Source: Campylobacterota bacterium (lineage in GTDB: Bacteria; Campylobacterota; Campylobacteria; Campylobacterales; Sulfurovaceae). Taken from it: a stretch of DNA of 24,787 nt. Each line of letters opens with the position of its first letter. Within the stretch, counting starts at the first letter, position 1. Location: the NCBI GenBank assembly GCA_034722955.1, contig JAYEOM010000012.1, positions 1-24,787 on the forward strand. The letters run 5' to 3'. Shown here piece by piece: positions 1 through 21,484 of this stretch. A program made the position numbers and the translations under genes. The notes under the pieces were generated by a model that was given only the letters and a program-made list of their open reading frames with translations, made no database searches and was not told where the DNA came from.

Positions 1-7
1 GAAACTT

Positions 8-32
8 TAGGGTCAGGTGTCTACCCACTACT
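8..32. repeat. Left arm of 25-bp inverted repeat flanking the RAYT pseudogene
   Basis: TAGGGTCAGGTGTCTACCCACTACT; its reverse complement matches 662-686 at 23/25 positions. Confidence 0.85.
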
Positions 33-609
33 AGCCCTAAATACTTTAGAAATCATAGCAGTTGATAAATCTAAATAGCGTGCTATTTCACCTTGTGTAT
101 AGCCATCGCTTAATGCCTTGATTATAGCAGAGTTTCTTGATGCTATCTCTGTGGAGTCTACAAAATGCTTTTCAAGTGTTTTTTCTTTTGTTTGTCTGAA
201 CTCATATTCATCTTGTACTATAGGTTTTTTTTGCTGAGTTTCTAACTTTTGTTGTTCTTTTTTGTTAAGTGGTCTCTCTAATAACTCCTGTATACCTTCA
301 TAGTAATACTCTTTTTTTAGTTTAGAGTGTTTAGCACAAGAGATAACATCTTGCTCTTTATTGAGAATGGAAGCTAGTAGAGTAAAAGGATACTCTCCTA
401 TACTAGAATACATTTTAGCCTTTAGTGGGTTATGTTCTATATATCTAAAGAGAGCGTAGAGATACTCTTCATTTATGATATACCAAGACTTGCAGAGTAT
501 CTAAGAACTTCTCTTTATCTTCATCACTTTTGTAAACATTAGAGCGTGCTACACCTCTGTTTACTATATGATGAAACCCATCTAGGTCTAGTCTTGGTTT
601 TCTTGCCAT
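21..609 (-). pseudogene. REP-associated tyrosine transposase (RAYT, Y1/HUH family) pseudogene with frameshift and internal deletion; C-terminal HTH retained
   Basis: From ATG at 609 (AGGAG RBS upstream) the minus strand reads MARKPRLDLDGFHHIVNRGVARSNVYKSDEDKEKFL, a typical RAYT N-terminus, then stops. A different frame gives LCKSWYIINEEYLYALFRYIEHNPLKAK (Y-I-x-x-N-P catalytic Tyr motif) running into ORF 21-413, which ends in an HTH (YTQGEIARYLDLSTAMISKV). The central HUH segment is missing. Confidence 0.85.
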
Positions 610-661
610 GCTATACTCCTTACTTAGTTTTACTAAAAGAAGTATAGCTTATTTTAGATTA

Positions 662-686
662 AGTAGTGGGTATACACCTGACTCTA
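662..686. repeat. Right arm of 25-bp inverted repeat flanking the RAYT pseudogene
   Basis: AGTAGTGGGTATACACCTGACTCTA vs reverse complement of 8-32, AGTAGTGGGTAGACACCTGACCCTA (2 mismatches). Confidence 0.85.
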
Positions 687-737
687 TTATTTTATTATTT
701 CTATTATTTTACTATTTACTATTCATCATCCCCATAC

Positions 738-782
738 GGGGACACAGGTTTCATTCACTGCGTTCACAAAACCAATGCCCCC
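738..782. repeat. REP-like imperfect palindrome
   Basis: GGGGACACAGGTTT-cattcactgcgttcac-AAAACCAATGCCCCC is a GC-rich imperfect hairpin in AT-rich intergenic DNA next to the RAYT gene. Confidence 0.55.
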
Positions 783-902
783 TGATTGTAGCCCAAGAGT
801 ATCTCCAGTGATTGGCTTCATCTACAAAATTTCGTTAGATTGTCTATTGTAGCTTTTAGGATTAAGTGTCTATTTTGTTACTGTAGCTCTCATGCGTATC
901 TT

Positions 903-919
903 GGGGGATGGGAACGAGC
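903..919. repeat. Degenerate REP-like half element (…TGGGAACGAGC)
   Basis: GGGGGATGGGAACGAGC; its reverse complement resembles GCTTTGTTCCACGCTCCTGC at 2162-2181. Confidence 0.35.
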
Positions 920-998
920 GATAGCGTATATGATGTTAAAAAAATCAAAAAGATGCATTGTTTTTAAAAGCTTCCATATTTCCTATTGCAATAGAATA

Positions 999-1007
999 TG
1001 ATATAAT
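999..1007 (+). promoter_or_regulatory. Extended -10 sigma70 promoter element
   Basis: TGATATAAT (TGnTATAAT) upstream of the MmeI-like fragment and the 1191/1612 gene pair. Confidence 0.5.
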
Positions 1008-1064
1008 AAACCCAAAACTCCACAATACCTTTAGCCAAGAGGAGTTAGAGGAGATAATCAAATA

Positions 1065-1148
1065 TATTACAGCAATAAAACTTTCAAGAGTGATAAAGAG
1101 AGTATAGAGTTTTTATTTGAGTTGTATGAGTATTTGAATGATGGATAG
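1065..1148 (+). pseudogene. C-terminal fragment resembling an MmeI-type (Type IIL) restriction-modification enzyme
   Basis: Reads YYSNKTFKSDKESIEFLFELYEYLNDG*, matching my recollection of the MmeI-family C-terminal pattern Y-x4-F-x-S-D-x-E-R-x-E-F-L-F-E-L-Y. There is no start codon, and an in-frame stop lies at 1032-1034. Confidence 0.55.
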
Positions 1149-1190
1149 AGGCAAAATAAGCTTAATATTTTAATAAAATAAGGAGAAAAT

Positions 1191-1625
1191 ATGACACAAG
1201 AGAGAGAAGAGACTTTTAATCAATACAAAAAAAATCTTGATAAGCTGTATGAAGAGATAGCTATGTGGTCAGAACAAAATAGCTTGACAACATCTAGTGA
1301 GACAATCGAAATAAGTGTAGATGCATCTGAGAGGGCTACACTCAAAAAGCTTTTGCTCAGAGATGAAAACCAAGATACTATAGCCACTTTGATTCCTATT
1401 AGTGCGTGGGTAATAGGGGCAAAGGGTAGAATAGACTTTGTGGGTACAAACGATAAAGCTATTCTTGTCTATCTCAAAGCCAATACTCCTCAATCCTTTT
1501 TTAAAAATATTGATGATGATGCTTGGTACTGGATTGAAGACAAACGACGGGGCAAAGCCTATAAACTAGATAATGAATTTTTTAATGAACTTCTCTTGAT
1601 GGTCTCTGATTATGAGTGCAATTGA
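1191..1625 (+). CDS. Hypothetical protein (144 aa), partner of downstream HEPN protein
   Basis: AAGGAG RBS and ATG. Conserved-looking core LIPISAWVIGAKGRIDFVG. Overlaps the next gene by 14 nt. Confidence 0.8.
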   Translation: MTQEREETFNQYKKNLDKLYEEIAMWSEQNSLTTSSETIEISVDASERATLKKLLLRDENQDTIATLIPISAWVIGAKGRIDFVGTNDKAILVYLKANTPQSFFKNIDDDAWYWIEDKRRGKAYKLDNEFFNELLLMVSDYECN

Positions 1626-2145
1626 TAAATTAGAAGAGATTTGGAATACTTACCAAGTAACAAAAGATTGTTTAAAAGTGACAGAACGAAGTATTAATAA
1701 AAAACCACATCATCTAAAAATATTGAGAAGTACAGACTTTATTACCGATACTTCACACGAAGCCAACCAAAAAATTAAATTGAGTCGAGATAATGCAGAT
1801 GACTATGTGATACTAGCCCTTTGGACAGTATTTGAACGCAAGTTATTTGAAGAGGTACAGGTAGAGAGTAGAAAAAACTTTGAAGATAATGAGTTTGCTA
1901 AACGATTACAAGAGGAGTGTGAAAACAAAGTCGAATATTGGAAGTTTGATGAGATTTTAGATATTTACAAATCATTTATAGATACTCAACTGATAGGTAC
2001 AGCAAAAAATATCAAAAAGTATCGAGATTGGGTTGTACACAAAAATCCTAATAAACAACAACCCGATAACATCACACCAACTTTGGCATACAATACACTC
2101 TATGAAATGCTTGAAAGATTAGAAAACTATAGAAGTCAATTTTAG
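1612..2145 (+). CDS. HEPN-domain protein, putative RNase (177 aa)
   Basis: All-helical pattern with N-terminal ILALWTVFE and C-terminal Rx4H motif KYRDWVVHKNP. Confidence 0.7.
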   Translation: MSAIDKLEEIWNTYQVTKDCLKVTERSINKKPHHLKILRSTDFITDTSHEANQKIKLSRDNADDYVILALWTVFERKLFEEVQVESRKNFEDNEFAKRLQEECENKVEYWKFDEILDIYKSFIDTQLIGTAKNIKKYRDWVVHKNPNKQQPDNITPTLAYNTLYEMLERLENYRSQF

Positions 2146-2161
2146 AGATTAGCAAAAGTGA

Positions 2162-2181
2162 GCTTTGTTCCACGCTCCTGC
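2162..2181. repeat. Degenerate REP-like half element (GTTCCACGCTCCTGC)
   Basis: GC-rich patch just after the HEPN stop codon, resembling GTTCCCACGCTCC-type REP arms; inverted relative to 903-919. Confidence 0.35.
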
Positions 2182-2299
2182 CGCTTAATCTTAACTTAAC
2201 TTAAGTACCGTGTATTGAATTTCTACTTTTGTAACTTTCTAAAACAATTTTAAACAAAAAGGGTCTGGCAACAACTACAACTTATTCTCTTGCTGTAGC

Positions 2300-4066
2300 T
2301 TAAAACTCAACAAAAAATCCATTTTCTTTGAGAATCTTTGTGAGTTTTGGTAACTCTTTTCTAGAGACTATGATACGGTATCCTGATGCTTTAGTGACTA
2401 GCTCTTGGAGTTTTTTGTTATTCATAAATATATTGAGCAGAGCTTTGTTATTTTCTAGTTCTATGACGACTTGTGAGGGTTCTCTTTTTAGGAGGTTTGA
2501 TTTGGCATATATCTCATCAAAGTAGTTATCAAACAGCACAGGTACAGGCTTGTCAAAGAGCGTGTAGAACTTGTCTATCTTGGCTTCTAGTATTTTATTG
2601 CTCTCGCAACCTTTAAATATTTTGCTATAGCTCAATATATATCGATTGCTATCATACTTATCTGTGTAGGGTTCGAGCTTGGCTAACATAATAGCATCAT
2701 TATTTTGTATAGTAATGATAGGTTTGTACTCATCAAATTTGACGGTAGAAGCTTTCTCTGCTATCTTGGGTGCAGTATATCTCTCTTCAAAATCAAAGAT
2801 ATATCTCCCAAGAGCAGTGAGCTTGACATATCTGAGTCCATCCCATACAGAGATATAGGGTTTTCCTTTGGCTGTGATACTATTGGGCAAAATACTACTG
2901 AGTGAAAGAGGGTCGTTATATTTGAGCTCTACGATGCCCAATGCTCCTAGATAAAAAAACATCCCTTTTAGCATAGGTTCAAAAATAATAGCATTATAGT
3001 TTTTATCCTCTGCAAAGAGCCTATCATCATGGACTCTTTGAGGGTCTACATCCATATAGTAGCGTTCTGTTGCATAAGATGACTCAAGATCTATACGAAA
3101 ATCCCTATAGTTACAGTAGTTAATAATATTATCAAAATCTACCCAACCCTTTTTTGGTATTTTCTCAATAACTATTTTGACAATATCAAAGAGCTCTAAC
3201 TGTTCGTCACTATATTTACCAAACTTCACCTTGCGGATATGACTCAGAAAAACTCGCGATATTGTATAGCTAAAGATATCATTGAGCTGTAGAGTAATAA
3301 AAGTTTTGAGCGTCTCTAGTGGTGTTTTTTTAAATCTTTGCTTCTCCCAATAATAGAAAGAAAAACTACGAGTCAACATATCCATAGCCAAGGAGTCCAT
3401 CTTTTTGGTAGGGAAAAACTCTTGATTGGAAGTAGTAGATTTAAGTATATTGAGACTTTTTGCGAGGGGTTTCTCTCCTGTTTTGCCAAATGCTATGAGG
3501 TTGGTCTTGAGCATCTCTTCGATAGTTGTTATTATACTTAGAATATTTGATTCATTACTGTAGGTGTAAGTTGTATCATCTATTTGATGAGCCTCTCTCA
3601 ACTCATAATCATCAGGCAGAGGATGGATAAGTTTGAGAATAGGTCGGATTCTCTGGTGAATATAGATACTATCTTCATTCCAATAACTGTATTTGTAAAT
3701 CAAGCTTAAATGACCATTGAATTTCTCTTCACTATAATCAACACGCGTTGTATTGTTAGAGTTTAGACCAAATTTATCTTCTCCCTCCTCTACGCTCATC
3801 TCTTTTTGTTTCCACAGGAGTCTATAGTAGAGCTCTTTAGATTGGGGTGTTGTAGTGAGTTGGTGATAAAACTTTGTTTTATACTCCTCATCTTTGATAA
3901 GTTTTGAGAGCAATTCGATCATCTGTCTCTTATTTTTTCTAGGCTGTGGATATTTTTTTTGGTCTATGAGTCCCTTTTGGTAACCAGTGATTGCCTTTAG
4001 TTGCAGCATAGTCGCACCATTTATGATATCAAACAACTCTTTGTCAGAGACTTGCATCCACTTCAC
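2300..4066 (-). CDS. Helicase-associated domain protein (XPB-associated Helicase_C_3/p52-like C-terminus), paralog 2, 588 aa
   Basis: Long ORF. GTG start overlaps the upstream TGA. Motifs YLGALGIVEL and YVKLTALGRYI; C-terminal VVIELENNKALL…RIIVSRKELPKLTKILKENG is similar to the upstream gene. Confidence 0.75.
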   Translation of the reverse strand: MKWMQVSDKELFDIINGATMLQLKAITGYQKGLIDQKKYPQPRKNKRQMIELLSKLIKDEEYKTKFYHQLTTTPQSKELYYRLLWKQKEMSVEEGEDKFGLNSNNTTRVDYSEEKFNGHLSLIYKYSYWNEDSIYIHQRIRPILKLIHPLPDDYELREAHQIDDTTYTYSNESNILSIITTIEEMLKTNLIAFGKTGEKPLAKSLNILKSTTSNQEFFPTKKMDSLAMDMLTRSFSFYYWEKQRFKKTPLETLKTFITLQLNDIFSYTISRVFLSHIRKVKFGKYSDEQLELFDIVKIVIEKIPKKGWVDFDNIINYCNYRDFRIDLESSYATERYYMDVDPQRVHDDRLFAEDKNYNAIIFEPMLKGMFFYLGALGIVELKYNDPLSLSSILPNSITAKGKPYISVWDGLRYVKLTALGRYIFDFEERYTAPKIAEKASTVKFDEYKPIITIQNNDAIMLAKLEPYTDKYDSNRYILSYSKIFKGCESNKILEAKIDKFYTLFDKPVPVLFDNYFDEIYAKSNLLKREPSQVVIELENNKALLNIFMNNKKLQELVTKASGYRIIVSRKELPKLTKILKENGFFVEF

Positions 4067-5823
4067 ACTATCGCTCCATGCTCTTTCAATACCTTTTTGA
4101 CATAAGTCAAATCATCCTTGAGAACCACTATATGGAGTTTGTCTGCTTTGAGTATCTTCTCTTGGAGTTTTGGGTGTGAGGCGATGATACCCTGTATCTC
4201 TTTGGGGTTTTTGATCTCTATGAGTATAGCAGAACGGCTCACGATAGTGATAGAGTCTATGCGTCTCTCTATAGTGTCAAAGAGCCTCTGCCAATTCTCA
4301 GGAACACTCTCGCATTTGGAGAGAAGCTCCTCTTTGAGGATATGGAAGCTTTGAGCTGTATCTACAATATTCATGAGCTTCTTGAGTGTGGTTTGGTATT
4401 TGTGTTCTGTAATCTGCGTCGCCATAGGGGAGAGGAGGAGTTCAGAGCGACTACTTGGATTGTCTACTGTGATCTCGAAGGCATAGGGGTTGAGTTTTAG
4501 AGTGAAGTTGCTCTCCTCTGCAAAGCTCTTCTCTAGCCCAAGTACAAAGCGACCCAACTTGGTTAACTTGATATACTCTATATTGATAAATGGTCTGTTA
4601 TAATAGCCATCAGATCGTTTTAACTCGTCTGCTATAAAGCTCTCTTTGGCTGTAGTCGCAAGAGTGAAGAGCCCGAAATTAGAGGCGATACCGACAAAGC
4701 TCTTGATAAAGTATCGTACAACCATCTTGAGGTCTTTGAGCTGGTTGTACCCATCGCGTCGACGGCGATAATCGTGCTCAAAGTTGTAACAGTAGGGGTA
4801 GCCATTGCTGATCTGTGTGATCACTTTATTGGTGAGTGGTATCTCCTCAGTGAAAAAGTCTATACTTATCCACTCATCGCTATTGAGATTGGCTATGGTC
4901 TCCAAGAGAGTTTTTCTAAATTTCGCAACATCTTTTCCTGAAGTTGCGTCAATATCAAATATAACAAAATTAAACTCTTGTTGCATCTTATGTGCGACAT
5001 ATTTGTCAAAGAGTGCCTGGATGAGTTTGCCATCATCTCTCATAATCACACTATCAAATGCTTTGGTGGGGAGTTTGAGCTGCGGCTTAGTAAGATATTG
5101 GATATCCAAAAGAAAATTGATCAACCAAATATAGTAGTGGGGATCCGCAGAGATACTCTCCTCTATGAATCTTCTACTACGGACGGTAAGTGTTCCTTTT
5201 TGAGTGATTTTGAGTTTGGAGTCTTTGGCAAGACGATAGAAAAAGCGTACAATAGAGACGATATCTTGAGGCTCCTCTACGATGAGCTTTTGCGAAAGAG
5301 GCATGAAGTCACCATCTACTTTGTGAATCTTGATACTGTTGATATCTTTGGTAGTGTCTGGGTGCTTGGCTGGTATAGGGGGTGTCTCTTTCTTGTTAGG
5401 GATTAGAGTATCATCTCCCAAAAATCTGAAAAAGTAGTATCTCAAGACCTCATCCATCTCATTTTGGTCTATGAAAAGTTCAAGCCACCAGACATAGATC
5501 ATCTGAGGACCTCTAGTCATAGAGACGATATCAAACTTAAACTTCTTCTTCACGGCAGCTCGTAGATTTCCCCCCCTATGGTTGACTATATACTTGAGTA
5601 TTTTTTGCTCTCTAGGTGTGAGCTTGCTATAGAAATGCTCCAAATACCCCTCGGATACAATCGTATCGGGGATGATATTTGTCGCTAGCTCTCTCTTTGT
5701 GGCACCAAAAAAGAAATTGATATCATACTTACTGCATAGGGTTTTGAGTGCACCCTCACTGAGCAGTATATACTTTTTATACACTATCTCTATAGACTCA
5801 TCCTCTTCATAAAACATATCCAT
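4063..5823 (-). CDS. Helicase-associated domain protein (XPB-associated Helicase_C_3/p52-like C-terminus), paralog 1, 586 aa
   Basis: Long ORF 4 nt downstream of the SNF2 stop. Motifs LKITQKGTLTVRS and YIKLTKLGRFVLG; C-terminal AILIEIKNP…LHIVVLKDDLTYVKKVLKEHG. Confidence 0.75.
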   Translation of the reverse strand: MDMFYEEDESIEIVYKKYILLSEGALKTLCSKYDINFFFGATKRELATNIIPDTIVSEGYLEHFYSKLTPREQKILKYIVNHRGGNLRAAVKKKFKFDIVSMTRGPQMIYVWWLELFIDQNEMDEVLRYYFFRFLGDDTLIPNKKETPPIPAKHPDTTKDINSIKIHKVDGDFMPLSQKLIVEEPQDIVSIVRFFYRLAKDSKLKITQKGTLTVRSRRFIEESISADPHYYIWLINFLLDIQYLTKPQLKLPTKAFDSVIMRDDGKLIQALFDKYVAHKMQQEFNFVIFDIDATSGKDVAKFRKTLLETIANLNSDEWISIDFFTEEIPLTNKVITQISNGYPYCYNFEHDYRRRRDGYNQLKDLKMVVRYFIKSFVGIASNFGLFTLATTAKESFIADELKRSDGYYNRPFINIEYIKLTKLGRFVLGLEKSFAEESNFTLKLNPYAFEITVDNPSSRSELLLSPMATQITEHKYQTTLKKLMNIVDTAQSFHILKEELLSKCESVPENWQRLFDTIERRIDSITIVSRSAILIEIKNPKEIQGIIASHPKLQEKILKADKLHIVVLKDDLTYVKKVLKEHGAIV

Positions 5824-5827
5824 ACCT

Positions 5828-8587
5828 CTACCCCAATATATAATCTAAATCAGAAGCAGTCAACTGCTTGAGTCCACCCTCATCACCACTGATGATCATA
5901 TCGGTCATATCCTGTTTTTGTCCTTGTAGCTCTAGTATCTTCTCCTCTATCGTATCTTTGGTGATCATCTTGTAGCTGAAGACTTTGTTTTTCTGTCCCA
6001 TTCGGTGGGCTCTATCTACAGCTTGATTCTCTGCCGCCCTGTTCCACCACGGATCAAAGATAAAGACATAATCCGCCTCTGTGAGGTTCAACCCTACACC
6101 GCCGACCTTGAGTGTCATGAGAAAGAGTTTGATCTTTTTGTCATTTTGGAACTTGTCGACTAGCTCTTGTCTGTTGCGTGTGCTTCCTGTCATCAGGAGA
6201 TGATCATACCCTAGCTCATCAGCTTTGGCGGAGATGAGGTCGAGTGAGCCTAAATAGTTGGCAAAGAGCAGGACTTTGTGACCATTGAGGATGATATCAC
6301 TTAGCATCTCAAAGAGATTATCTATCTTAGAAGAAGCGATATGGTTCTCCGACTTGAGTTCTGGAGCAGAGGCTATCTGTCGCAAGTCATTGAATGCTTG
6401 GAGTATCACAAAACGAGAATTTTGGATACCATTGGCTGCTATCTGTTGGTCGAGCAGCTGCTTGTAGTAGTCTCGCTTCTCATTGTAGAACTTCTTGTGT
6501 GGCTCCTCCATATCGACATAGACCACTTGCTCCTGTTTGTCGGGCAAGTCTTTGAGTACATCTTGCTTGAGTCGTCGCAGGAGGAACGGAGTGATCTTCG
6601 CTTTGAGTAGATGAGCGACCTCTTCGTCGGCTTCGGCTTGTATCGGGATAGCAAAATCTCGCTTGAAGTCAGCTACTCCAGAGAAGATCCCCTCATTGAG
6701 AAATCGAAAGAGAGAAAATAGCTCAAAGAGTGAATTCTCTATAGGTGTACCACTCAGTGCAAACTTATGTTTGCCATTGAGCAGCATCACTGCTTTGGAT
6801 ATCTTCGATTCGATATTTTTAACATTTTGTGACTCATCGAGGATGATGGTATCAAATTTCATCTCTCTTAGCTTCTCTATATCGTTTCTCACTATAGCAT
6901 AAGAGGTGAGTACGATATGGTGTTTTTGTATCTCCTCTACATCTCTCTCGTTCCCATAGTAGAGGTAGTAGGAGAGTTCAGGGTTAAATCTACTCAGCTC
7001 ATTTTGCCAATTGCTCAGCAGACTTCGAGGCATCACGATGAGTGAGGGGGTCTTGGTCTTTGGGTAGATAGTCGAGAGGAGTGTGATAGCTTGGAGGGTT
7101 TTTCCTAGCCCCATATCATCAGCTAGACAACCACCGAAGCCATTGTCATAGAGATACTTGAGCCATCTCGCTCCCTCTTTTTGGTAGTCTCTGAGGGTTA
7201 CATCTGCCAATTTCGGTAGTCTTGTTCTTGAAGATTTGAGCTTGTTGAATCCCTCATAGAACTTCCTGCTATCTTTGAAGACTCTCTGCTCTTTTTGGGC
7301 GATGAGCTCCTCTATCTCAGGGAGGTCAAAAAAGGAGACTTTGATTTTATCTTTGCCTTGTTTTTTAAATATCCGCTCTAGTCGTGAGATATAGGATTTG
7401 TCTACTATGGATTTGTCACCATTGGAGAGTGGGATATAGGAGTGTTTTTTGTAGAGGTTGACCATATCGAAGATATCGAAGCTATCATCACCGATAGTCA
7501 CACTCACATCTCCTGCATCCAAAAAGTCTATCTTATCTTTGAATGCGATGTTGAGTGATGGCGGATTGGTGTTATATTTATAAGCTTTGAGTTTCTCACT
7601 CCCAAAGAGTTCACACTTGGCGATGATAGTATGGAGGTGACTGAGGATAAACTCTGTCGCTATCTCCTCTTCGATGACAAACAATCCATCCTCTTCACTG
7701 AAACTGGCATTTTTGTTTTTTCTGTTCAGTGCTGTGAGGTTTTTAAATATCATCCCATAGACTTCAAAGACTTCAGAGAAGTCACACTCATGCAGAGAGA
7801 TGCTCTTCTCTAGCTCATTGATAAGTACGATTTTAGTGATATTGAAGTCATTGAAAAACTCTGGCGAGAGCTTACCTACGGTCGCAGAGGTGCGGAGTAT
7901 CAGCTCATTTTCTGCTGTGATCTTCTCAAATATTACGGCTGGCTTAATGATTTTAAGCTCCTCTTTTTGTTCGACACTGTAGTGGTCATAGTCTATGACG
8001 ATATTTTCAAAGTGAGTAGTAAGGATAGTGAGTAGCTCTTCGAGTTTGTTTGGCTCTATGGTGGTGTTGAAGTTTTTGAGTTGCCTGTAGTGATCTCCTA
8101 CGAAGTGTACCTGCTGAATGGACTCTCCTGCCAAGATATAGCTTGGAGTCAAAAACTTAAACTCACTCTCTCCACCGACCATAGAGGTTACTACAAGTTT
8201 GTCTGCTACACTCTGCGTATCTACATAGATGGCTACATCACGAATCCCATCAGCAAAAGAGAGCCCTTTGCCCTCCTCTGTGATGAGTTTGTCGCTTTGA
8301 CGAAGCAGTTCGAGCAGTCTAGGGTGTTTGTCGAGATAGACCTGTTCCCCCTCATCCTCCCAAGAAATCTCAAAAAAAGCCTCCTGCTTGCACTGGTCAA
8401 GAAGCTGGAGTATCTCTCTATCTAGTCCGCTATAGACACGATAATCTACTCCAGTAAGTAGTTTGAGCTTGTTGTCACACAACTCCAGATAAGCCCCATG
8501 ATTATCAAATTTTAACAGATAATGAAAGCTCCTCTTCTCTTTTGCACGGGTCAAAAAACTTTTATCTTGTTTGAAAATATCTAGCAT
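5828..8587 (-). CDS. SNF2/SWI2-family SF2 ATPase (DNA translocase), ~919 aa
   Basis: LRDYQKEG (Q motif), LADDMGLGKT (Walker A), ILDESQNVKN (Walker B), ALSGTPIEN, and FDPWWNRAAENQAVDRAHRMGQ (motif VI). Start moved from 8668 to ATG 8587 (MLDIF) because of a GAGGA RBS and an upstream extended -10. Confidence 0.93.
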   Translation of the reverse strand: MLDIFKQDKSFLTRAKEKRSFHYLLKFDNHGAYLELCDNKLKLLTGVDYRVYSGLDREILQLLDQCKQEAFFEISWEDEGEQVYLDKHPRLLELLRQSDKLITEEGKGLSFADGIRDVAIYVDTQSVADKLVVTSMVGGESEFKFLTPSYILAGESIQQVHFVGDHYRQLKNFNTTIEPNKLEELLTILTTHFENIVIDYDHYSVEQKEELKIIKPAVIFEKITAENELILRTSATVGKLSPEFFNDFNITKIVLINELEKSISLHECDFSEVFEVYGMIFKNLTALNRKNKNASFSEEDGLFVIEEEIATEFILSHLHTIIAKCELFGSEKLKAYKYNTNPPSLNIAFKDKIDFLDAGDVSVTIGDDSFDIFDMVNLYKKHSYIPLSNGDKSIVDKSYISRLERIFKKQGKDKIKVSFFDLPEIEELIAQKEQRVFKDSRKFYEGFNKLKSSRTRLPKLADVTLRDYQKEGARWLKYLYDNGFGGCLADDMGLGKTLQAITLLSTIYPKTKTPSLIVMPRSLLSNWQNELSRFNPELSYYLYYGNERDVEEIQKHHIVLTSYAIVRNDIEKLREMKFDTIILDESQNVKNIESKISKAVMLLNGKHKFALSGTPIENSLFELFSLFRFLNEGIFSGVADFKRDFAIPIQAEADEEVAHLLKAKITPFLLRRLKQDVLKDLPDKQEQVVYVDMEEPHKKFYNEKRDYYKQLLDQQIAANGIQNSRFVILQAFNDLRQIASAPELKSENHIASSKIDNLFEMLSDIILNGHKVLLFANYLGSLDLISAKADELGYDHLLMTGSTRNRQELVDKFQNDKKIKLFLMTLKVGGVGLNLTEADYVFIFDPWWNRAAENQAVDRAHRMGQKNKVFSYKMITKDTIEEKILELQGQKQDMTDMIISGDEGGLKQLTASDLDYILG

Positions 8588-8612
8588 GAAGTTCCTCATT
8601 TTGTTTATTGAT

Positions 8613-8621
8613 ATTTTAGCA
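8613..8621 (-). promoter_or_regulatory. Extended -10 for the SNF2 operon
   Basis: Minus strand TGCTAAAAT (TGnTAAAAT), about 26 nt upstream of ATG 8587. Confidence 0.5.
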
Positions 8622-8716
8622 CCTATACCTAAAATTTGATTGTTAGTGAATGATATATGAAGAGGCATGGCAAGAAATGAGCAATAATTTTTAGATTTTT
8701 GGATTCAATGCAAGAG

Positions 8717-10364: not shown

Positions 10365-10574
10365 TCACTTTCCGCCCAATGGATCATCACTCCTATTTTT
10401 TGCCTCTCTCTTTTCAAAGGCTTGATTAGAGGGGGTGTTTTCTTGAGAGAAGTACCCTACTCCAAAAAGGACACACCCCTTGCATCCTGGATCACATCTG
10501 TGGCTCAAGAGTCGGCACCACTCCTTCTCATCTCCGTGTGTTGTCAAGTGTTGACATCCCCATCCGCTACTCAT
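10365..10574 (-). CDS. Small Cys-rich hypothetical protein (69 aa), possible metal/Fe-S binding
   Basis: ATGA overlap with acylphosphatase stop; GWGCQH…WCRLLSHRCDPGCKGCVL contains 5 Cys. Confidence 0.7.
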   Translation of the reverse strand: MSSGWGCQHLTTHGDEKEWCRLLSHRCDPGCKGCVLFGVGYFSQENTPSNQAFEKREAKNRSDDPLGGK

Positions 10575-10846
10575 CGGAGTATCTCAAAGCCATCATAGAT
10601 GAGACCGGCATCATCGATCAAGCTATAGCTGATATCATCAACTTGAGAGAGTGGTGACCCCTCTCTCAGCAACTCTAGGAAATCTTCCAAATCGTCATCG
10701 ATCAATTCGGCAACTACCTCTACGCTACCATCTGATAAGTTTTTTATCGCACCTCTGATCTGTTTTCGCATCGCCGCTTGTGAAACAAACTTACGATAAA
10801 ATACACCTTGCACTCGTCCAAACACCATAAATCTATACAGCTCCAT
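10571..10846 (-). CDS. acyP: Acylphosphatase
   Basis: Signature VFGRVQGVFYR and KNLSDGSVEVVAE…GSPLSQV; 91 aa. Confidence 0.93.
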   Translation of the reverse strand: MELYRFMVFGRVQGVFYRKFVSQAAMRKQIRGAIKNLSDGSVEVVAELIDDDLEDFLELLREGSPLSQVDDISYSLIDDAGLIYDGFEILR

Positions 10847-11270
10847 ACTCCTCCTTTATACCCTCTAAAAACTCCAAGATACGCTGATGAAATATCTTGT
10901 CCTCCTCTTTATCTAGGCAATCACTAAATCGTTTCAGTACCTCTATATCTATCTTATCTGAAAATCGCTTATTATCCCTAGCTTCCCTCTCGACTAGAAC
11001 AATCAAATGTTCAAAATCAAGACCATTTTTTGTCTTGATCTTTTGAAAATACTCATTGACAGTATCGATCAATATATCTGCTCTCTCACTATCATCACTG
11101 TATATCTTGGATGCTACCTCTGCAAGCATCTGATGTTCACAAGGGTTGATCTCACTATCTGATGCGATCATCAGTGTGAGTATTTTGGCTCGAAACTCCA
11201 TAGAGCTATTGTGATATACAAGAAATTCACGAAACATTTTAAGAATATTCCGCTTGAATCTTTTCAACAT
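10833..11270 (-). CDS. Conserved hypothetical protein, TerB-like
   Basis: LMIASDSEINPCEHQML resembles the TerB A-D-G-x-I-x-x-x-E motif. ATG 11270 has an AAGGTG RBS; the gene overlaps acyP. Confidence 0.65.
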   Translation of the reverse strand: MLKRFKRNILKMFREFLVYHNSSMEFRAKILTLMIASDSEINPCEHQMLAEVASKIYSDDSERADILIDTVNEYFQKIKTKNGLDFEHLIVLVEREARDNKRFSDKIDIEVLKRFSDCLDKEEDKIFHQRILEFLEGIKEEYGAV

Positions 11271-11369
11271 TTTGACACCTTTAGACAATAATTAACATTA
11301 TTTTAACAAAACAACACTATAGTTTCAGTTATAAAACCAAATTTATCTCGAAAGCTTACATAACCACCT

Positions 11370-12155
11370 ATGAACAATATTGATCTTATCCTTATCTTTA
11401 CAACTGCATTTTTGGGAAGTGTCGGTCACTGCATTGGTATGTGCGGTGGCATCATCGTAGCATACAGCTCTACCAAAATAGACCACAAATCCTCTTGGGG
11501 TATACAGACTATCTCACATTTAGCCTATAACTTTGGACGCGTAACCACATATGCCATACTAGGTGCAATGTTTGGCTTGATAGGGCAGGTGATCGCCTTT
11601 ACCCCTGTCACCAAGGGTGTGCTTTTTTTATTGACTGGTATTTTGATGATACTCGCAGGGCTGTCACTCTTGGGAGAGTTCAAGTTTCTCAACTCTGCAG
11701 AAGCATCTATCTCCAAGGCTGGATGGTTTCGTGATACCTTCAGACGATTGATCTCAAGCAAAACAATCAGCAGTTTTTATCTATTGGGGATGCTCAATGG
11801 TATCATCCCTTGTGGTCTAGTCTACTCCTTTGCTATATTTGCTGCTAGTACGGCAAGTCCTATGTGGGGTGCTATAGTGATGGCTGTCTTTGGATTGGCT
11901 ACTATCCCTGCCCTCTTCTTTTTGGGTACTATCACACGATTTTTGCAGCGAGGATCACTACGGGGCACTATGATGAAATTAGCCTCTATGCTGGTCATAC
12001 TATATGGTATCTTTACACTCTACAAAGCTTACCAGTTTATAGCCCATCCACAAGAGACACAACAAGCCCTAGATGAGATGCAAGAGGGTAGTATCAAAAG
12101 TAAACTCGAAGGTAAATGCGGTGGTATGAAGTGTGCCCCGGGCAAATGCGGATAG
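11370..12155 (+). CDS. Sulfite exporter TauE/SafE-like (DsbD_2) membrane protein with C-terminal KCG repeats
   Basis: GHCIGMCGG and GIIPCGLVYS motifs, multiple TM segments, tail EGKCGGMKCAPGKCG. Confidence 0.85.
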   Translation: MNNIDLILIFTTAFLGSVGHCIGMCGGIIVAYSSTKIDHKSSWGIQTISHLAYNFGRVTTYAILGAMFGLIGQVIAFTPVTKGVLFLLTGILMILAGLSLLGEFKFLNSAEASISKAGWFRDTFRRLISSKTISSFYLLGMLNGIIPCGLVYSFAIFAASTASPMWGAIVMAVFGLATIPALFFLGTITRFLQRGSLRGTMMKLASMLVILYGIFTLYKAYQFIAHPQETQQALDEMQEGSIKSKLEGKCGGMKCAPGKCG

Positions 12156-17378: not shown

Positions 17379-17638
17379 TGCAGTTAAGTGTAGATATTCA
17401 AGATAATAACATAGCAGAAAAAATTTTATGGTTTTTAAGTACCTTTTCAGATAAAGGTGTCAAAGTAGAGAAAGTAGTACCTTCAAAAGTCTATGATGAT
17501 GAAGAGATAGATGAGGAGTATCTTGAGAAAAATTGGAGAGAATTAGTCGTGACAAGTGTTGATAGTTCTGACTACTACAAAAGTGAACAATATTATGCAG
17601 ATAGAGTAAAAGATTGCAAATCAAGAGATAAAATTTGA
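17375..17638 (+). CDS. Small acidic hypothetical protein, putative antitoxin
   Basis: AAGGAG RBS; 87 aa with an acidic stretch; translationally coupled to the downstream PIN-containing gene. Confidence 0.65.
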
Positions 17639-19152
17639 ATTATATATTAGATATTAATATCATATTAGACTGTTTCAATCATCACAGAAGAAGAAAATTT
17701 CAAAATTCTGTTAAAGTGTATGATTTGCTCTATAAAAGTGCAGAAAATACTTTTATATCTTCATCTTCACTTGATAACATTGCATTTGTAAAAAGAGATG
17801 AACTAAAAGAAGAGAAAGGTTATTCAACTCAAAAAGCTAAAAGAGTAACAAGTTTACTAATTAAAGATATTATAGCACATTTCAAGATAGCAAAAACACC
17901 ATCATATTTAAAGATAGATTATGAAGATATAGAAGACTCTCAATTGATAGCATCAGCAAAAGCAGTCAACGCAAAAGTAATAACAAGAGATAAAAAAATG
18001 TTGAAAAAACATCCAGATATTACAATAACAGCAGAGTCATTTTTAAAAAACCATCAATCAAAAAGAGTTATAGACTTCGCAAACCTAAAAAAACAGTACT
18101 ACATGTACCAATCAGAACTAGAAGAGGGGATGGACAGAGTCCTAAACAGTGCTAACTATATCATGGGTGATGCAGTAAGCCGACTAGAGACAAATCTACA
18201 AGAGTTCACAGGTACTAAACATGCCATAACTTGCAGTAGTGGTACAGATGCTCTGCTATTAGCTATGATGGCTATCGATATTCAACCGGGTGACGAGATC
18301 ATCACAACTCCCTTTACTTTCATAGCCACGGCTGAGACTATTGCCTTCTTAGGTGCCATCCCTGTATTTGTGGACATAGATGAGAAGAGTTACAATATCG
18401 ATCCCTCCAAGATAGAAGCAGCCATCACAGACAGAACCAAAGTAATCATGCCTGTAAGTCTCTATGGTCAACCTGCAGAGATAGATCTCATCCAAGCTAT
18501 CGCAGATAAACATGATCTTAAAGTTATCATTGACGGTGCTCAGTCATTTGGTGCTACCTACAGAGGCGAGAGAGAGAGTAGCCTGGGAGATATATCTACA
18601 ACTTCATTTTTCCCCGCTAAACCACTTGGTTGTTTTGGAGATGGTGGAGCAGTGTTCACAAATAATGATGCCCTTGCAAAGAAGATCAAATCACTCAGAG
18701 TACACGGTCAGACCAAACGGTACCATCACCAATATATCGGTATGGGCGGGAGGATGGATGCACTACAGTGTGCTATTGTGGATGTAAAGCTGAAGTACTA
18801 TCCAAGAGATTTGGCTTTACGGCAAGAGGTTGCTAGTAGATATATGAAGTCACTCAGAGGTAAAGAGCTGATAATCCCCTTCGTCTCTAACGATACTACT
18901 TCTGCTTGGGCTCAATACTCCATAAGAGTTCAAAACCGTGATGAGCTTCAAGCTAAACTGAAGGAAGAAGGTATCCCGACAGCTATTCACTACCCAAAGC
19001 CTCTACACCTACAAGAGGCTTTTAGATATCTCGGCTACAAAAAAGGAGATTTTCCTGTTGGAGAGAGTGTGAGCAGCGAGATCATATCCCTGCCAATGAA
19101 CCCATATTTGACAGATGAAGAGATACAATATATAGGTGAAAATATCAAATGA
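17635..19152 (+). CDS. wbpE: Fusion protein: N-terminal PIN domain + DegT/DnrJ PLP aminotransferase (WbpE-like)
   Basis: Residues 1-~140 carry PIN motifs (YILDINII, EDIEDSQLIASA, VITRDK). From ~18070 the sequence reads IDFANL…SSGTDAL, IIDGAQSFGA and SFFPAKPLGCFGDGG (PLP Lys). One continuous frame. Confidence 0.88.
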   Translation: MNYILDINIILDCFNHHRRRKFQNSVKVYDLLYKSAENTFISSSSLDNIAFVKRDELKEEKGYSTQKAKRVTSLLIKDIIAHFKIAKTPSYLKIDYEDIEDSQLIASAKAVNAKVITRDKKMLKKHPDITITAESFLKNHQSKRVIDFANLKKQYYMYQSELEEGMDRVLNSANYIMGDAVSRLETNLQEFTGTKHAITCSSGTDALLLAMMAIDIQPGDEIITTPFTFIATAETIAFLGAIPVFVDIDEKSYNIDPSKIEAAITDRTKVIMPVSLYGQPAEIDLIQAIADKHDLKVIIDGAQSFGATYRGERESSLGDISTTSFFPAKPLGCFGDGGAVFTNNDALAKKIKSLRVHGQTKRYHHQYIGMGGRMDALQCAIVDVKLKYYPRDLALRQEVASRYMKSLRGKELIIPFVSNDTTSAWAQYSIRVQNRDELQAKLKEEGIPTAIHYPKPLHLQEAFRYLGYKKGDFPVGESVSSEIISLPMNPYLTDEEIQYIGENIK

Positions 19153-21193: not shown

Positions 21194-21484
21194 ATGAATG
21201 CACTTCTTGATACGAATATATTGATTTATTATTTTAATGGGCTTATTGATGATGTAGAGTTAGATAAAAAAGCAAAAGCATTTGTCTCTTATGCAACATT
21301 GTTTGATTTAGATGATTCCATAGCACAAACAACAATAAAGTTAAGACGTAATTTTAAAACAAAAACACTTGACGCTATTATAGCTGCAACGGCATTGGTA
21401 AACAATATGTCAGTTGTAACAAATAATCGCTCTGATTTTGAGGTATTGGGACTAGATGTGATAGGTATAAATGTTAAATTATAG
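21194..21484 (+). pseudogene. vapC: VapC/PIN toxin with probable internal in-frame deletion
   Basis: LLDTNILIY and DAIIAATAL…VTNNRSDF are present, but at 96 aa it lacks the central S-x-I-T-x-x-E segment of PIN domains. Confidence 0.7.

Follow-up and report, generated by a model that had tools for sequence, protein, structure and literature searches.

The window analysed here is a stretch of 24,787 nucleotides (contig JAYEOM010000012.1, positions 1 to 24,787 of the forward strand, assembly GCA_034722955.1) from a Campylobacterota bacterium of the Sulfurovaceae, whose genome is available as 2.5 Mb in 140 contigs. According to our ORF (open reading frame) calls, its minus strand carries three intact genes encoding, in this order, an SNF2-family ATPase and two partner proteins, paralog A (pA) and paralog B (pB), names that bear no relation to those of the plasmid partition proteins. 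Based on structural modelling, pB is predicted to have the four-part architecture of the TFIIH subunit p52, with the domains in the same order, and pA would share this architecture by virtue of its full-length homology to the pB family. We see an even chance that the trio represents one DNA-motor module, in which an SNF2-type double-strand DNA translocase works together with p52-like adaptors. Although a preliminary description of this locus envisioned a three-subunit module, and the trio is indeed real here, the unit that is conserved consists of two genes, SNF2 and one partner, the three-gene form being a lineage variant. Named homologs of the trio proteins retrieved in searches for close relatives were from Campylobacterota throughout.

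A p52-like architecture predicted for the partner proteins

In the portion of the TFIIH literature on which we draw, p52 is treated as a eukaryotic TFIIH subunit made of an N-terminal domain (NTD), two middle domains (MD1 and MD2) and a p8-binding C-terminal domain (CTD) (PMC7708078), and the second middle domain, or "clutch" (residues 306-399), is described as having the fold of the XPB NTD, with which it forms a pseudo-symmetric dimer (PMC6422496). The AlphaFold2 model of pB, obtained with 62 relatives, had a mean pLDDT of 88 and a pTM of 0.81, and its best 20 Foldseek matches in the PDB were all chains from TFIIH entries, mostly of 430-460 residues, aligned over ~430-620 columns with a best E of 2e-5 and a probability of 1.0. 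Two of these matches are titled p52 (crystal entries 6trs and 6tru), while 8ebs_D and 6nmi_D were read as p52 from their chain length and their colinearity with the two titled entries. Whole-chain TM-scores between pB and the TFIIH chains were low (~0.2), because the domains are arranged differently. With VIA, residues 72-586 of pB could be aligned colinearly with positions 48-462 of the 446-residue chain D in the human TFIIH entry 8ebs (Z 8.1, 351 aligned), and the individual domains could be matched as well (Table 1). The clutch domain aligned with residues 72-164 of the XPB/Ssl2 NTD 6ro4_A at an rmsd of 3.1 over 84 aa, and with 8ebt_A at a Z of 7.4, rank 1 of 48,161 chains; pB residues 525-583 matched the Tfb2 CTD 3dom_D (Z 5.3, rmsd 2.2) and Tfb5 in 7o4i_5 (Z 5.8, rmsd 2.0), and the C-terminal domain also matched 3dgp_A (Z 5.7). 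In a Foldseek-independent search of 48,161 representative chains, in fact, the top 7 were all XPB NTD, p52, Tfb2-C or Tfb5. Because VIA regards Z values under 8 as middling, the weight of the p52 match lies in the three domains each having a counterpart, in the same order.

Table 1. Positions, in the window, of the module genes, of the predicted domains of their products and of the sequence elements ahead of the SNF2 gene.
Feature	Coordinates	Strand	Remarks
SNF2-family ATPase gene	5828..8587	minus	919 aa from ATG 8587; ORF open up to 8668
SNF2 N-terminal accessory region, residues 1-458	7214..8587	minus	several alpha/beta domains; AlphaFold2 model pLDDT 82.8
SNF2 ATPase core (SNF2-rel_dom + Helicase_C)	5996..7186	minus	motifs I, II and VI intact; E 4.8e-69 and 6.8e-20
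pA, p52-like partner, 586 aa	4063..5823	minus	fast-evolving clade; only in the three-gene form
pB, p52-like partner, 588 aa, GTG start	2300..4066	minus	orthologous to the sole partner of two-gene loci
pB winged-helix-rich N-terminal half, residues 73-429	2780..3850	minus	resembles p52 NTD + MD1; 6tru Z 7.0-7.3, 209-215 aligned
pB clutch domain, residues 438-524	2495..2755	minus	predicted XPB NTD / p52 MD2 fold; 6ro4_A Z 8.3
pB C-terminal domain, residues 525-588	2303..2494	minus	predicted Tfb2-C / Tfb5 (p8) fold
Extended -10-like motif TGcTAAAAT	8613..8621	minus	26 nt 5' of the SNF2 start codon; read from sequence
Shine-Dalgarno-like AGGA	8593..8596	minus	5 nt before ATG 8587; read from sequence

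Sequence comparison identifies pA and pB as full-length paralogs. BLASTP recovered only the C-terminal 187 aa, at 25% identity (E 9e-13), the profiles of the two Campylobacterota families matched at 99.3% over pB 253-588, and a broad-family profile matched the pA family at 99.95% (E 9.7e-38; pB 46-586, pA 42-584). The paralogy is thus wider than initially described, and the motifs on which that description relied are real: YIKLTKLGRFV in one protein and YVKLTALGRYI in the other, followed towards the C-terminus by LIEIKN...LHIVV...VLKEHG and VIELEN...YRIIV...ILKENG, respectively. Neither protein had a Pfam, NCBIfam or PADLOC family at E <= 0.1, bar a chance-level Pfam match to HTH_6 for pA, in agreement with the earlier remark that the paralogs have no recognisable ATPase or nuclease motifs; the same three resources returned no nuclease or other effector domain for the trio as a whole. 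In a tree of 59 rows (a quick search with SH-aLRT support only), the pA orthologs formed one clade (support 100) on a very long stem of 2.51 changes per column, and the pB orthologs a separate clade (support 100) outside of which pA was placed. Because pA is not nested in the pB clade, the duplication would predate the sampled pB clade and pA would be fast-evolving, with the proviso that long-branch effects might have shaped this topology. Of motor and partner, the latter is by far the faster-evolving: in the same loci, sequence identity to the window is 65-74% for SNF2 and 34-47% for the partner.

Helicase_C_3 (PF13625) proteins, according to the preliminary description, normally accompany bacterial XPB helicases, and an independent link to this family came from sequence profiles. 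When plasmid records were searched by tblastn with a Fusobacterium-type partner, an ORF of Rhodococcus sp. JS3073 was found (E 1e-7) that encodes 577 aa (L157:5158-6888, in a 1.39-Mb plasmid record) and carries PF13625 at residues 434-541 (45.1 bits, cut-off 34.2). The broad-family profile aligned with this protein at 99.6% in hhalign (E 5.9e-24, 393 columns, pB 171-587 against 151-572), and the position of PF13625 corresponds to the pB clutch. No helicase was seen among the 7 ORFs scanned beside the Rhodococcus gene, in a region whose high G+C makes ORF calls unreliable. The nearest neighbours in the ESM Atlas, the results of which are to be taken as leads only, were "hypothetical protein" clusters of Fusobacteriota and Spirochaetota, followed by clusters of Chloroflexota with PF13625 in 42% to 100% of their members, one of which has Tfb2 as well in 10%. 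PF13625 was absent from the source genome at E <= 1 and from all of the 301 Campylobacterota genomes searched, and the source genome had no XPB C-domain match over the cut-off. The proposal that the paralogs are of the p52/Helicase_C_3 type therefore stands at the superfamily level, by fold and by profile, and fails at the level of the Pfam PF13625 and Tfb2 models, which gave no match.

The partner family is large. A profile search of 1.84 billion representatives (50% identity) returned 1255 representatives at E <= 1e-3, 403 of them at E <= 1e-30. Outside the Campylobacterota clade, partners measure ~600 aa or come in longer forms of ~860 aa; one such subfamily has an N-terminal extension of ~260 residues (ORFs of 830-876 aa in loci L076, L084, L087 and L079). 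Among 18 partner relatives scanned, no Pfam family exceeded its curated cut-off, and weak N-terminal HEAT-repeat matches, all below the Pfam cut-off, were seen in 3 of the ~860-aa forms (P0277, P0289 and P0306). The few relatives with names are all "hypothetical protein" and belong to Hypnocyclicus, which we take to be a member of the Fusobacteriota, and, at the level of the partner protein, to a Desulfococcaceae metagenome-assembled genome (MAG) and a Pseudomonadota MAG. A search of 50,697 phage records returned no relative of pB.

The SNF2 motor and its pairing with the partner

The longest SNF2 ORF extends over 5828..8668. The start was nevertheless set at ATG 8587, as first proposed, because the length of the relatives (916-917 aa), the onset of homology to them at about residue 22-28 of the long ORF and a family consensus that opens with MLEIFKQ all fit this position. 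The tight operon organization is also borne out by the coordinates, with 4 nt between the SNF2 stop codon (5828-5830) and the pA ATG (5823), and with the pB GTG (4066-4064) overlapping the pA TGA (4065-4063) as GTGA. As for the promoter assigned to the operon, the extended -10 motif is present; its significance is unproven, because a generic sigma-70 scan yielded 20 promoter-like sites against 16.1 +/- 4.0 in shuffled sequences, and hence no excess. G+C content is 0.33-0.35 across the left flank and pB and 0.40-0.445 across pA and SNF2 (window 1-4000 vs 4001-8000).

In the long ORF, Pfam locates SNF2-rel_dom and Helicase_C within residues 495-891, and the scores for PF00176 (233.1 bits, cut-off 24.9) and PF00271 (71.8 bits, cut-off 23.5) identify the protein as a member of the SNF2 family. 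The ATPase is intact, as the preliminary description had noted, with DDMGLGKT, DESQ and QAVDRAHRMGQ as its unbroken motifs, and it follows an N-terminal region with no Pfam domain: nothing was detected before residue 490 of the long ORF, which leaves the first ~460 residues of the protein empty. There was likewise no Pfam or PADLOC family beyond the helicase domain. The best PADLOC scores for the core were those of DpdE (418 bits, residues 461-928) and ZorD1 (348 bits, residues 398-926). The best NCBIfam model was NF053675 (401.7 bits, residues 294-946), whose cut-off of 1100 places the protein outside that family, and the scores for ZorD (NF041790, 226.2 bits against a cut-off of 1500), DrmD (NF038318 and NF038317, 107.4 against 950 and 38.3 against 610 bits) and DpdE (NF041062, 30.7 bits against 500) place it outside those as well. 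The model of residues 1-458 is a chain of small alpha/beta domains, for which the only Foldseek match below E 1e-3 was apo ZorD (8qy7, E 2.2e-4); with VIA the two are colinear (21-414 against 21-413, 216 aligned) at a Z of only 4.1. The ferredoxin-like domain at residues 214-335 drew numerous generic matches (Z <= 6.4). A Tfb2-C match of the same model (Z 4.5) was discarded as it did not rise above unrelated rows.

The pairing of this SNF2 clade with the partner is conserved, as the preliminary description had anticipated. Of 201 genomes of the order Campylobacterales, 8 have the partner and 11 the N-terminal region of SNF2, and all 8 partner-positive genomes were also SNF2-positive; of the 3 SNF2-only genomes, two have contigs that end just past SNF2, and in the third (G144) SNF2 is broken and unrelated genes lie next to it. 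Neither the partner nor the SNF2 N-terminus was present in 14 genomes of the same family, including G180 of the same genus. Of 53 Campylobacterota loci from the species-genome collection, 18 are truncated at a contig end and 35 are informative; the SNF2 gene precedes the partner in 33 of these 35, and 11 of all 53 loci have a pA ortholog placed between the SNF2 and pB genes. SNF2 was likewise upstream of the partner in 69 of 70 informative loci among 79 metagenome loci retrieved with a distant-subfamily query (9 were cut by contig ends), a count that overstates independence because many of these loci are near-identical Fusobacterium-type contigs. The metagenome SNF2 orthologs are full length, 38-46% identical over residues ~28-946, N-terminal region included. 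The start and stop codons of the pair often overlap or lie a few bases apart, and the gene order was seen in Campylobacterota, in Fusobacterium and on a Bacteroidota plasmid (from Chondrinema), where RefSeq calls the pair "DEAD/DEAH box helicase" and "hypothetical protein". Eleven metagenome loci showed a gap of 700-790 nt between SNF2 and the partner, which in the 3 checked (L076, L084 and L087) is accounted for by longer partner ORFs (830-875 aa) beginning immediately downstream of SNF2. Locus L091, where two partner paralogs in tandem group together as closest relatives (support 99), represents an independent origin of a three-gene form.

Some loci depart from the common layout. Decayed copies of the module, with a frameshifted or interrupted SNF2 and partner fragments, were seen in L024 (three-gene), L018 (G144:C26), L058 and L068. 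In L015 (G051:C83, 9157-13350), SNF2 is followed by a short pA-like gene of 436 aa and by a 22-residue remnant of the pB C-terminus, and pB may have been lost there while pA was kept. Between SNF2 and the partner, L048 has a 459-aa ORF with an N-terminal SEC-C zinc motif (L048:1118-2497) and L079 has two ORFs of ~200 aa without a family (L079:5104-6340).

Possible roles and genomic surroundings

If the three products do form one DNA-motor module, the partner would bind the motor and anchor it or tune its ATPase, by analogy with p52 and p8, which in the sections of PMC7708078 concerned with XPB are reported to stimulate the ATPase of the latter and to set its speed limit. Because in TFIIH the clutch pairs with the XPB NTD and the CTD with p8, domains of the same fold in each case, the clutch and C-terminal domains might allow the partner of the two-gene form to dimerise with itself, and pA and pB could pair as a heterodimer through the same domains in the three-gene form, while the winged-helix half would contact DNA or a client protein. 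A complex prediction for SNF2 residues 20-458 with pB residues 72-588 returned a score of 0.00 against a mark of 0.32, and this run, which had no control pairs, gives no answer either way. With regard to function, we lean towards genome maintenance (DNA opening, roadblock removal or repair), to which we give a little under an even chance and which we rate somewhat above defence because the recurrent or suggestive neighbours are DNA-metabolism genes, though mobile contexts exist as well. One could go further and speculate that p52-type proteins are an old and general clutch for superfamily 2 (SF2) double-strand DNA translocases with bacterial branches for XPB and for SNF2, that the pA-pB heterodimer mimics the pseudo-symmetric p52/p8/XPB-NTD pairings of TFIIH, and that the resulting motor serves repair or replication by opening or clearing DNA; we put this broader scenario forward tentatively.

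The neighbours on which this preference is based differ among lineages. The Fusobacterium order is an MBL-fold gene, SNF2, the partner and dnaE. In the Fusobacterium-type loci L129, L149, L116 and L156 a 237-aa MBL-fold gene (Lactamase_B_3) lies 5' of the pair, dnaE lies 3' of it in L129, L149, L110 and L156, and L110 has the MBL domain as an N-terminal fusion to SNF2 (1143 aa); L156 is from Fusobacterium vincentii (NZ_CP084075.1:642713-662467), a PLSDB record labelled plasmid and yet 2.1 Mb long. In L041 a RecQ gene overlaps the end of the partner, in L114 a DnaQ-GIY-YIG-UVR gene lies 3' of it, and in L064 a UvrA-like ORF was found upstream. In the relatives in general, neighbours vary between genomes and are mostly housekeeping genes.

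Several of our results weigh against a p52-like motor module acting in genome maintenance. All VIA Z-scores are 8.3 or lower, a range that the tool itself rates as middling; the Pfam Tfb2 and PF13625 models detect neither pA nor pB, and sequence-profile searches of the PDB with the pB, pA and broad-family alignments gave nothing meaningful. No fold resembling the XPB NTD or the p52 clutch was found by Foldseek or VIA in the SNF2 N-terminal model, although a search with a model of 458 residues may overlook an individual domain, and for this reason the docking mode, if any, either differs from that of XPB and p52 or has escaped detection. The pair is also not inseparable, given that solo partners without SNF2 occur in L027 and L090, that L058 has a degraded partner without SNF2, and that G144 has a broken SNF2 without a partner. 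The patchy distribution within the order and the absence from the 14 same-family genomes are more in keeping with an accessory gene than with one for core repair, and the repair-gene neighbours, limited to few lineages, could be due to chance.

Such a distribution also counts in favour of anti-phage or anti-plasmid defence, in which the SNF2 translocase would act as ZorD does in Zorya, DrmD in DISARM or DpdE in Dpd, with the p52-like proteins as sensor or adaptor. This alternative is the strongest of those considered and still, in our opinion, unlikely. It can draw on the PADLOC scores of the SNF2 core, topped by DpdE and ZorD, on the weak colinearity of the SNF2 N-terminus with that of ZorD, on the decayed copies (L024, L058 and G144) and on the absence of the module from G180. 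The Chondrinema plasmid copy is flanked by IS110 and IS982 transposases, which adds a mobile context, and window positions 1-2300 had no DNA match in three relatives. Neighbours speak on both sides. When 120 neighbour ORFs from 15 Campylobacterota loci were scanned with PADLOC, 9 had matches at E <= 1e-10 and 111 did not, and 4 of the 9 look like housekeeping genes: 2 are RecQ-like ("DpdF" models; one confirmed by Pfam), 1 is ThiF-like ("E1-E2" models) and 1 is dCTP-deaminase-like. The remaining 5 are defence-type candidates in 3 loci, the PDC-candidate neighbours in L020 and L025 being among the points in favour of defence, together with the placement of the module of L049 between a second SNF2 and an NsnB/AriA-like ATPase. 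Against defence, however, the trio has no nuclease or effector domain, its SNF2 scores fall far short of the curated thresholds of ZorD, DrmD and DpdE, the varying neighbours are housekeeping genes, and the Fusobacterium pair sits beside dnaE on the chromosome. In most loci, the surroundings are not a defence island. The locus L049, from a Sulfurimonas MAG, is the only clearly defence-like neighbourhood seen, with the three-gene module directly after the second SNF2 gene (598-4020, 1141 aa, DUF3670) and the ABC ATPase gene (10508-11644) 3' of it.

A transcription-linked remodeller, in which SNF2 would displace RNA polymerase or a nucleoid protein in a RapA-like or NF053675-like fashion and a winged-helix partner would target it to loci, appears improbable. 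NF053675, the best NCBIfam model, bears the name "pilus expression-regulating Snf2 family helicase", winged-helix-like domains abound in the partner, pB residues 27-157 matching small transcription regulators at Z 4.1-4.7, and TFIIH XPB-p52 also acts in transcription according to the relevant part of PMC6422496. The NF053675 score, however, is far below the cut-off and covers the C-terminal two thirds only, the activity of that family is known from the model name alone, no paper on it having been found in the openly licensed PMC and bioRxiv literature, and no RNA polymerase or regulator gene recurs as a neighbour. Lastly, that the genes are mere neighbours whose products do not work together, the p52 likeness being convergent or a model artefact, is scarcely credible in spite of the middling Z-scores and the uninformative complex prediction, given the adjacency across phyla with overlapping or near-abutting codons, the three separate domains that match p52 counterparts in the same order, and the independent profile link to a PF13625-bearing protein.

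Within the window itself, the left flank of the module holds 3 small ORFs without a family over the cut-off, namely two overlapping ORFs of 144 and 177 aa on the plus strand that converge on pB (1191-1625 and 1612-2145) and a 130-aa ORF on the minus strand with weak HTH-like matches (21-413). The right flank begins with a CitMHS-type transporter and continues with sugar-nucleotide and polysaccharide genes. In the PADLOC scan, the other five window ORFs examined had no family at E <= 0.1 except for 4 weak matches on the 21-413 ORF (best E 9.5e-4). The left 2.3 kb being unmatched in three relatives and the transporter gene lying on another contig in a same-genus genome, this region is strain-specific, and the contig edge truncates it on the left. 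Neither the 3 left ORFs nor the transporter were retained as parts of the system, as none was near the module in any fetched locus. Further to the right, a 505-aa ORF (17635-19152) combines a DegT aminotransferase domain at residues 161-504 with a PIN_3 match at residues 3-121, and a 96-aa ORF (21194-21484) has a partial PIN domain; these PIN-bearing ORFs in the sugar-nucleotide and polysaccharide cluster may be toxin-antitoxin remnants, or the result of a wrongly extended ORF.

Relation to TFIIH and other known systems

The partner family, with its 1255 representatives, is large and unnamed, and would carry the whole p52 architecture while being tied to SNF2 rather than to XPB. If the partner regulates the motor as p52 does XPB, the pair would offer a simple two-protein bacterial model of adaptor control over SF2 translocases, would give hundreds of proteins annotated as "hypothetical" a function and would add a data point on the origin of the TFIIH bottom lobe, with a bearing on the possible control of defence-system SNF2 proteins such as ZorD. 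The trio appears undescribed, as the preliminary description had claimed, in that no paper on a prokaryotic SNF2 with a p52-like partner was found in the CC-licensed PMC and bioRxiv literature, a scope that excludes subscription papers and supplements; a joint mention of Tfb2 and SNF2 in PMC10910872 turned out to concern unrelated CRISPR associations.

Among known systems, the SNF2 module has in common with Zorya a related SNF2 core and weakly colinear N-terminal regions (ZorD of type I Zorya, PDB 8qy7). Unlike Zorya, however, it is not accompanied by ZorA, ZorB or ZorC, no Zor component having been matched in the six window ORFs scanned, and its motor falls far short of the ZorD model. The NF053675 family provides the closest curated model, which reaches residue 294 and thus extends N-terminal of the ATPase core, but the SNF2 protein is not a member of it. 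With the Helicase_C_3 proteins the partners share profile-level homology, and the neighbouring Atlas clusters carry PF13625, but that model misses pA and pB and the adjoining motor is here SNF2.

The closest parallel is the XPB-p52-p8 assembly of TFIIH (XPB, p52 and p8 in humans; Ssl2, Tfb2 and Tfb5 in yeast), which likewise combines an SF2 double-strand DNA translocase with a multi-domain adaptor, and the same domain order is predicted for the adaptor: winged helices in the N-terminal half, then a clutch that folds like the XPB NTD and, at the C-terminus, a small domain of the p8/Tfb5 fold, all preceded in pB by ~70 extra N-terminal residues. The Pfam model for Tfb2 (presumably PF03849, with PF18307 for Tfb2_C) does not recognize the partners, and there is no p34, p44 or p62 context. 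The motor, moreover, is SNF2 and not XPB, with no XPB-NTD-like domain detected in it, so that "SNF2 in place of XPB" is best taken as a reasonable analogy. Finally, the operon contains no separate p8 gene or other small gene, and it has instead a second full-length paralog, whose homologous C-terminal region could fill the role that p8 has in TFIIH.

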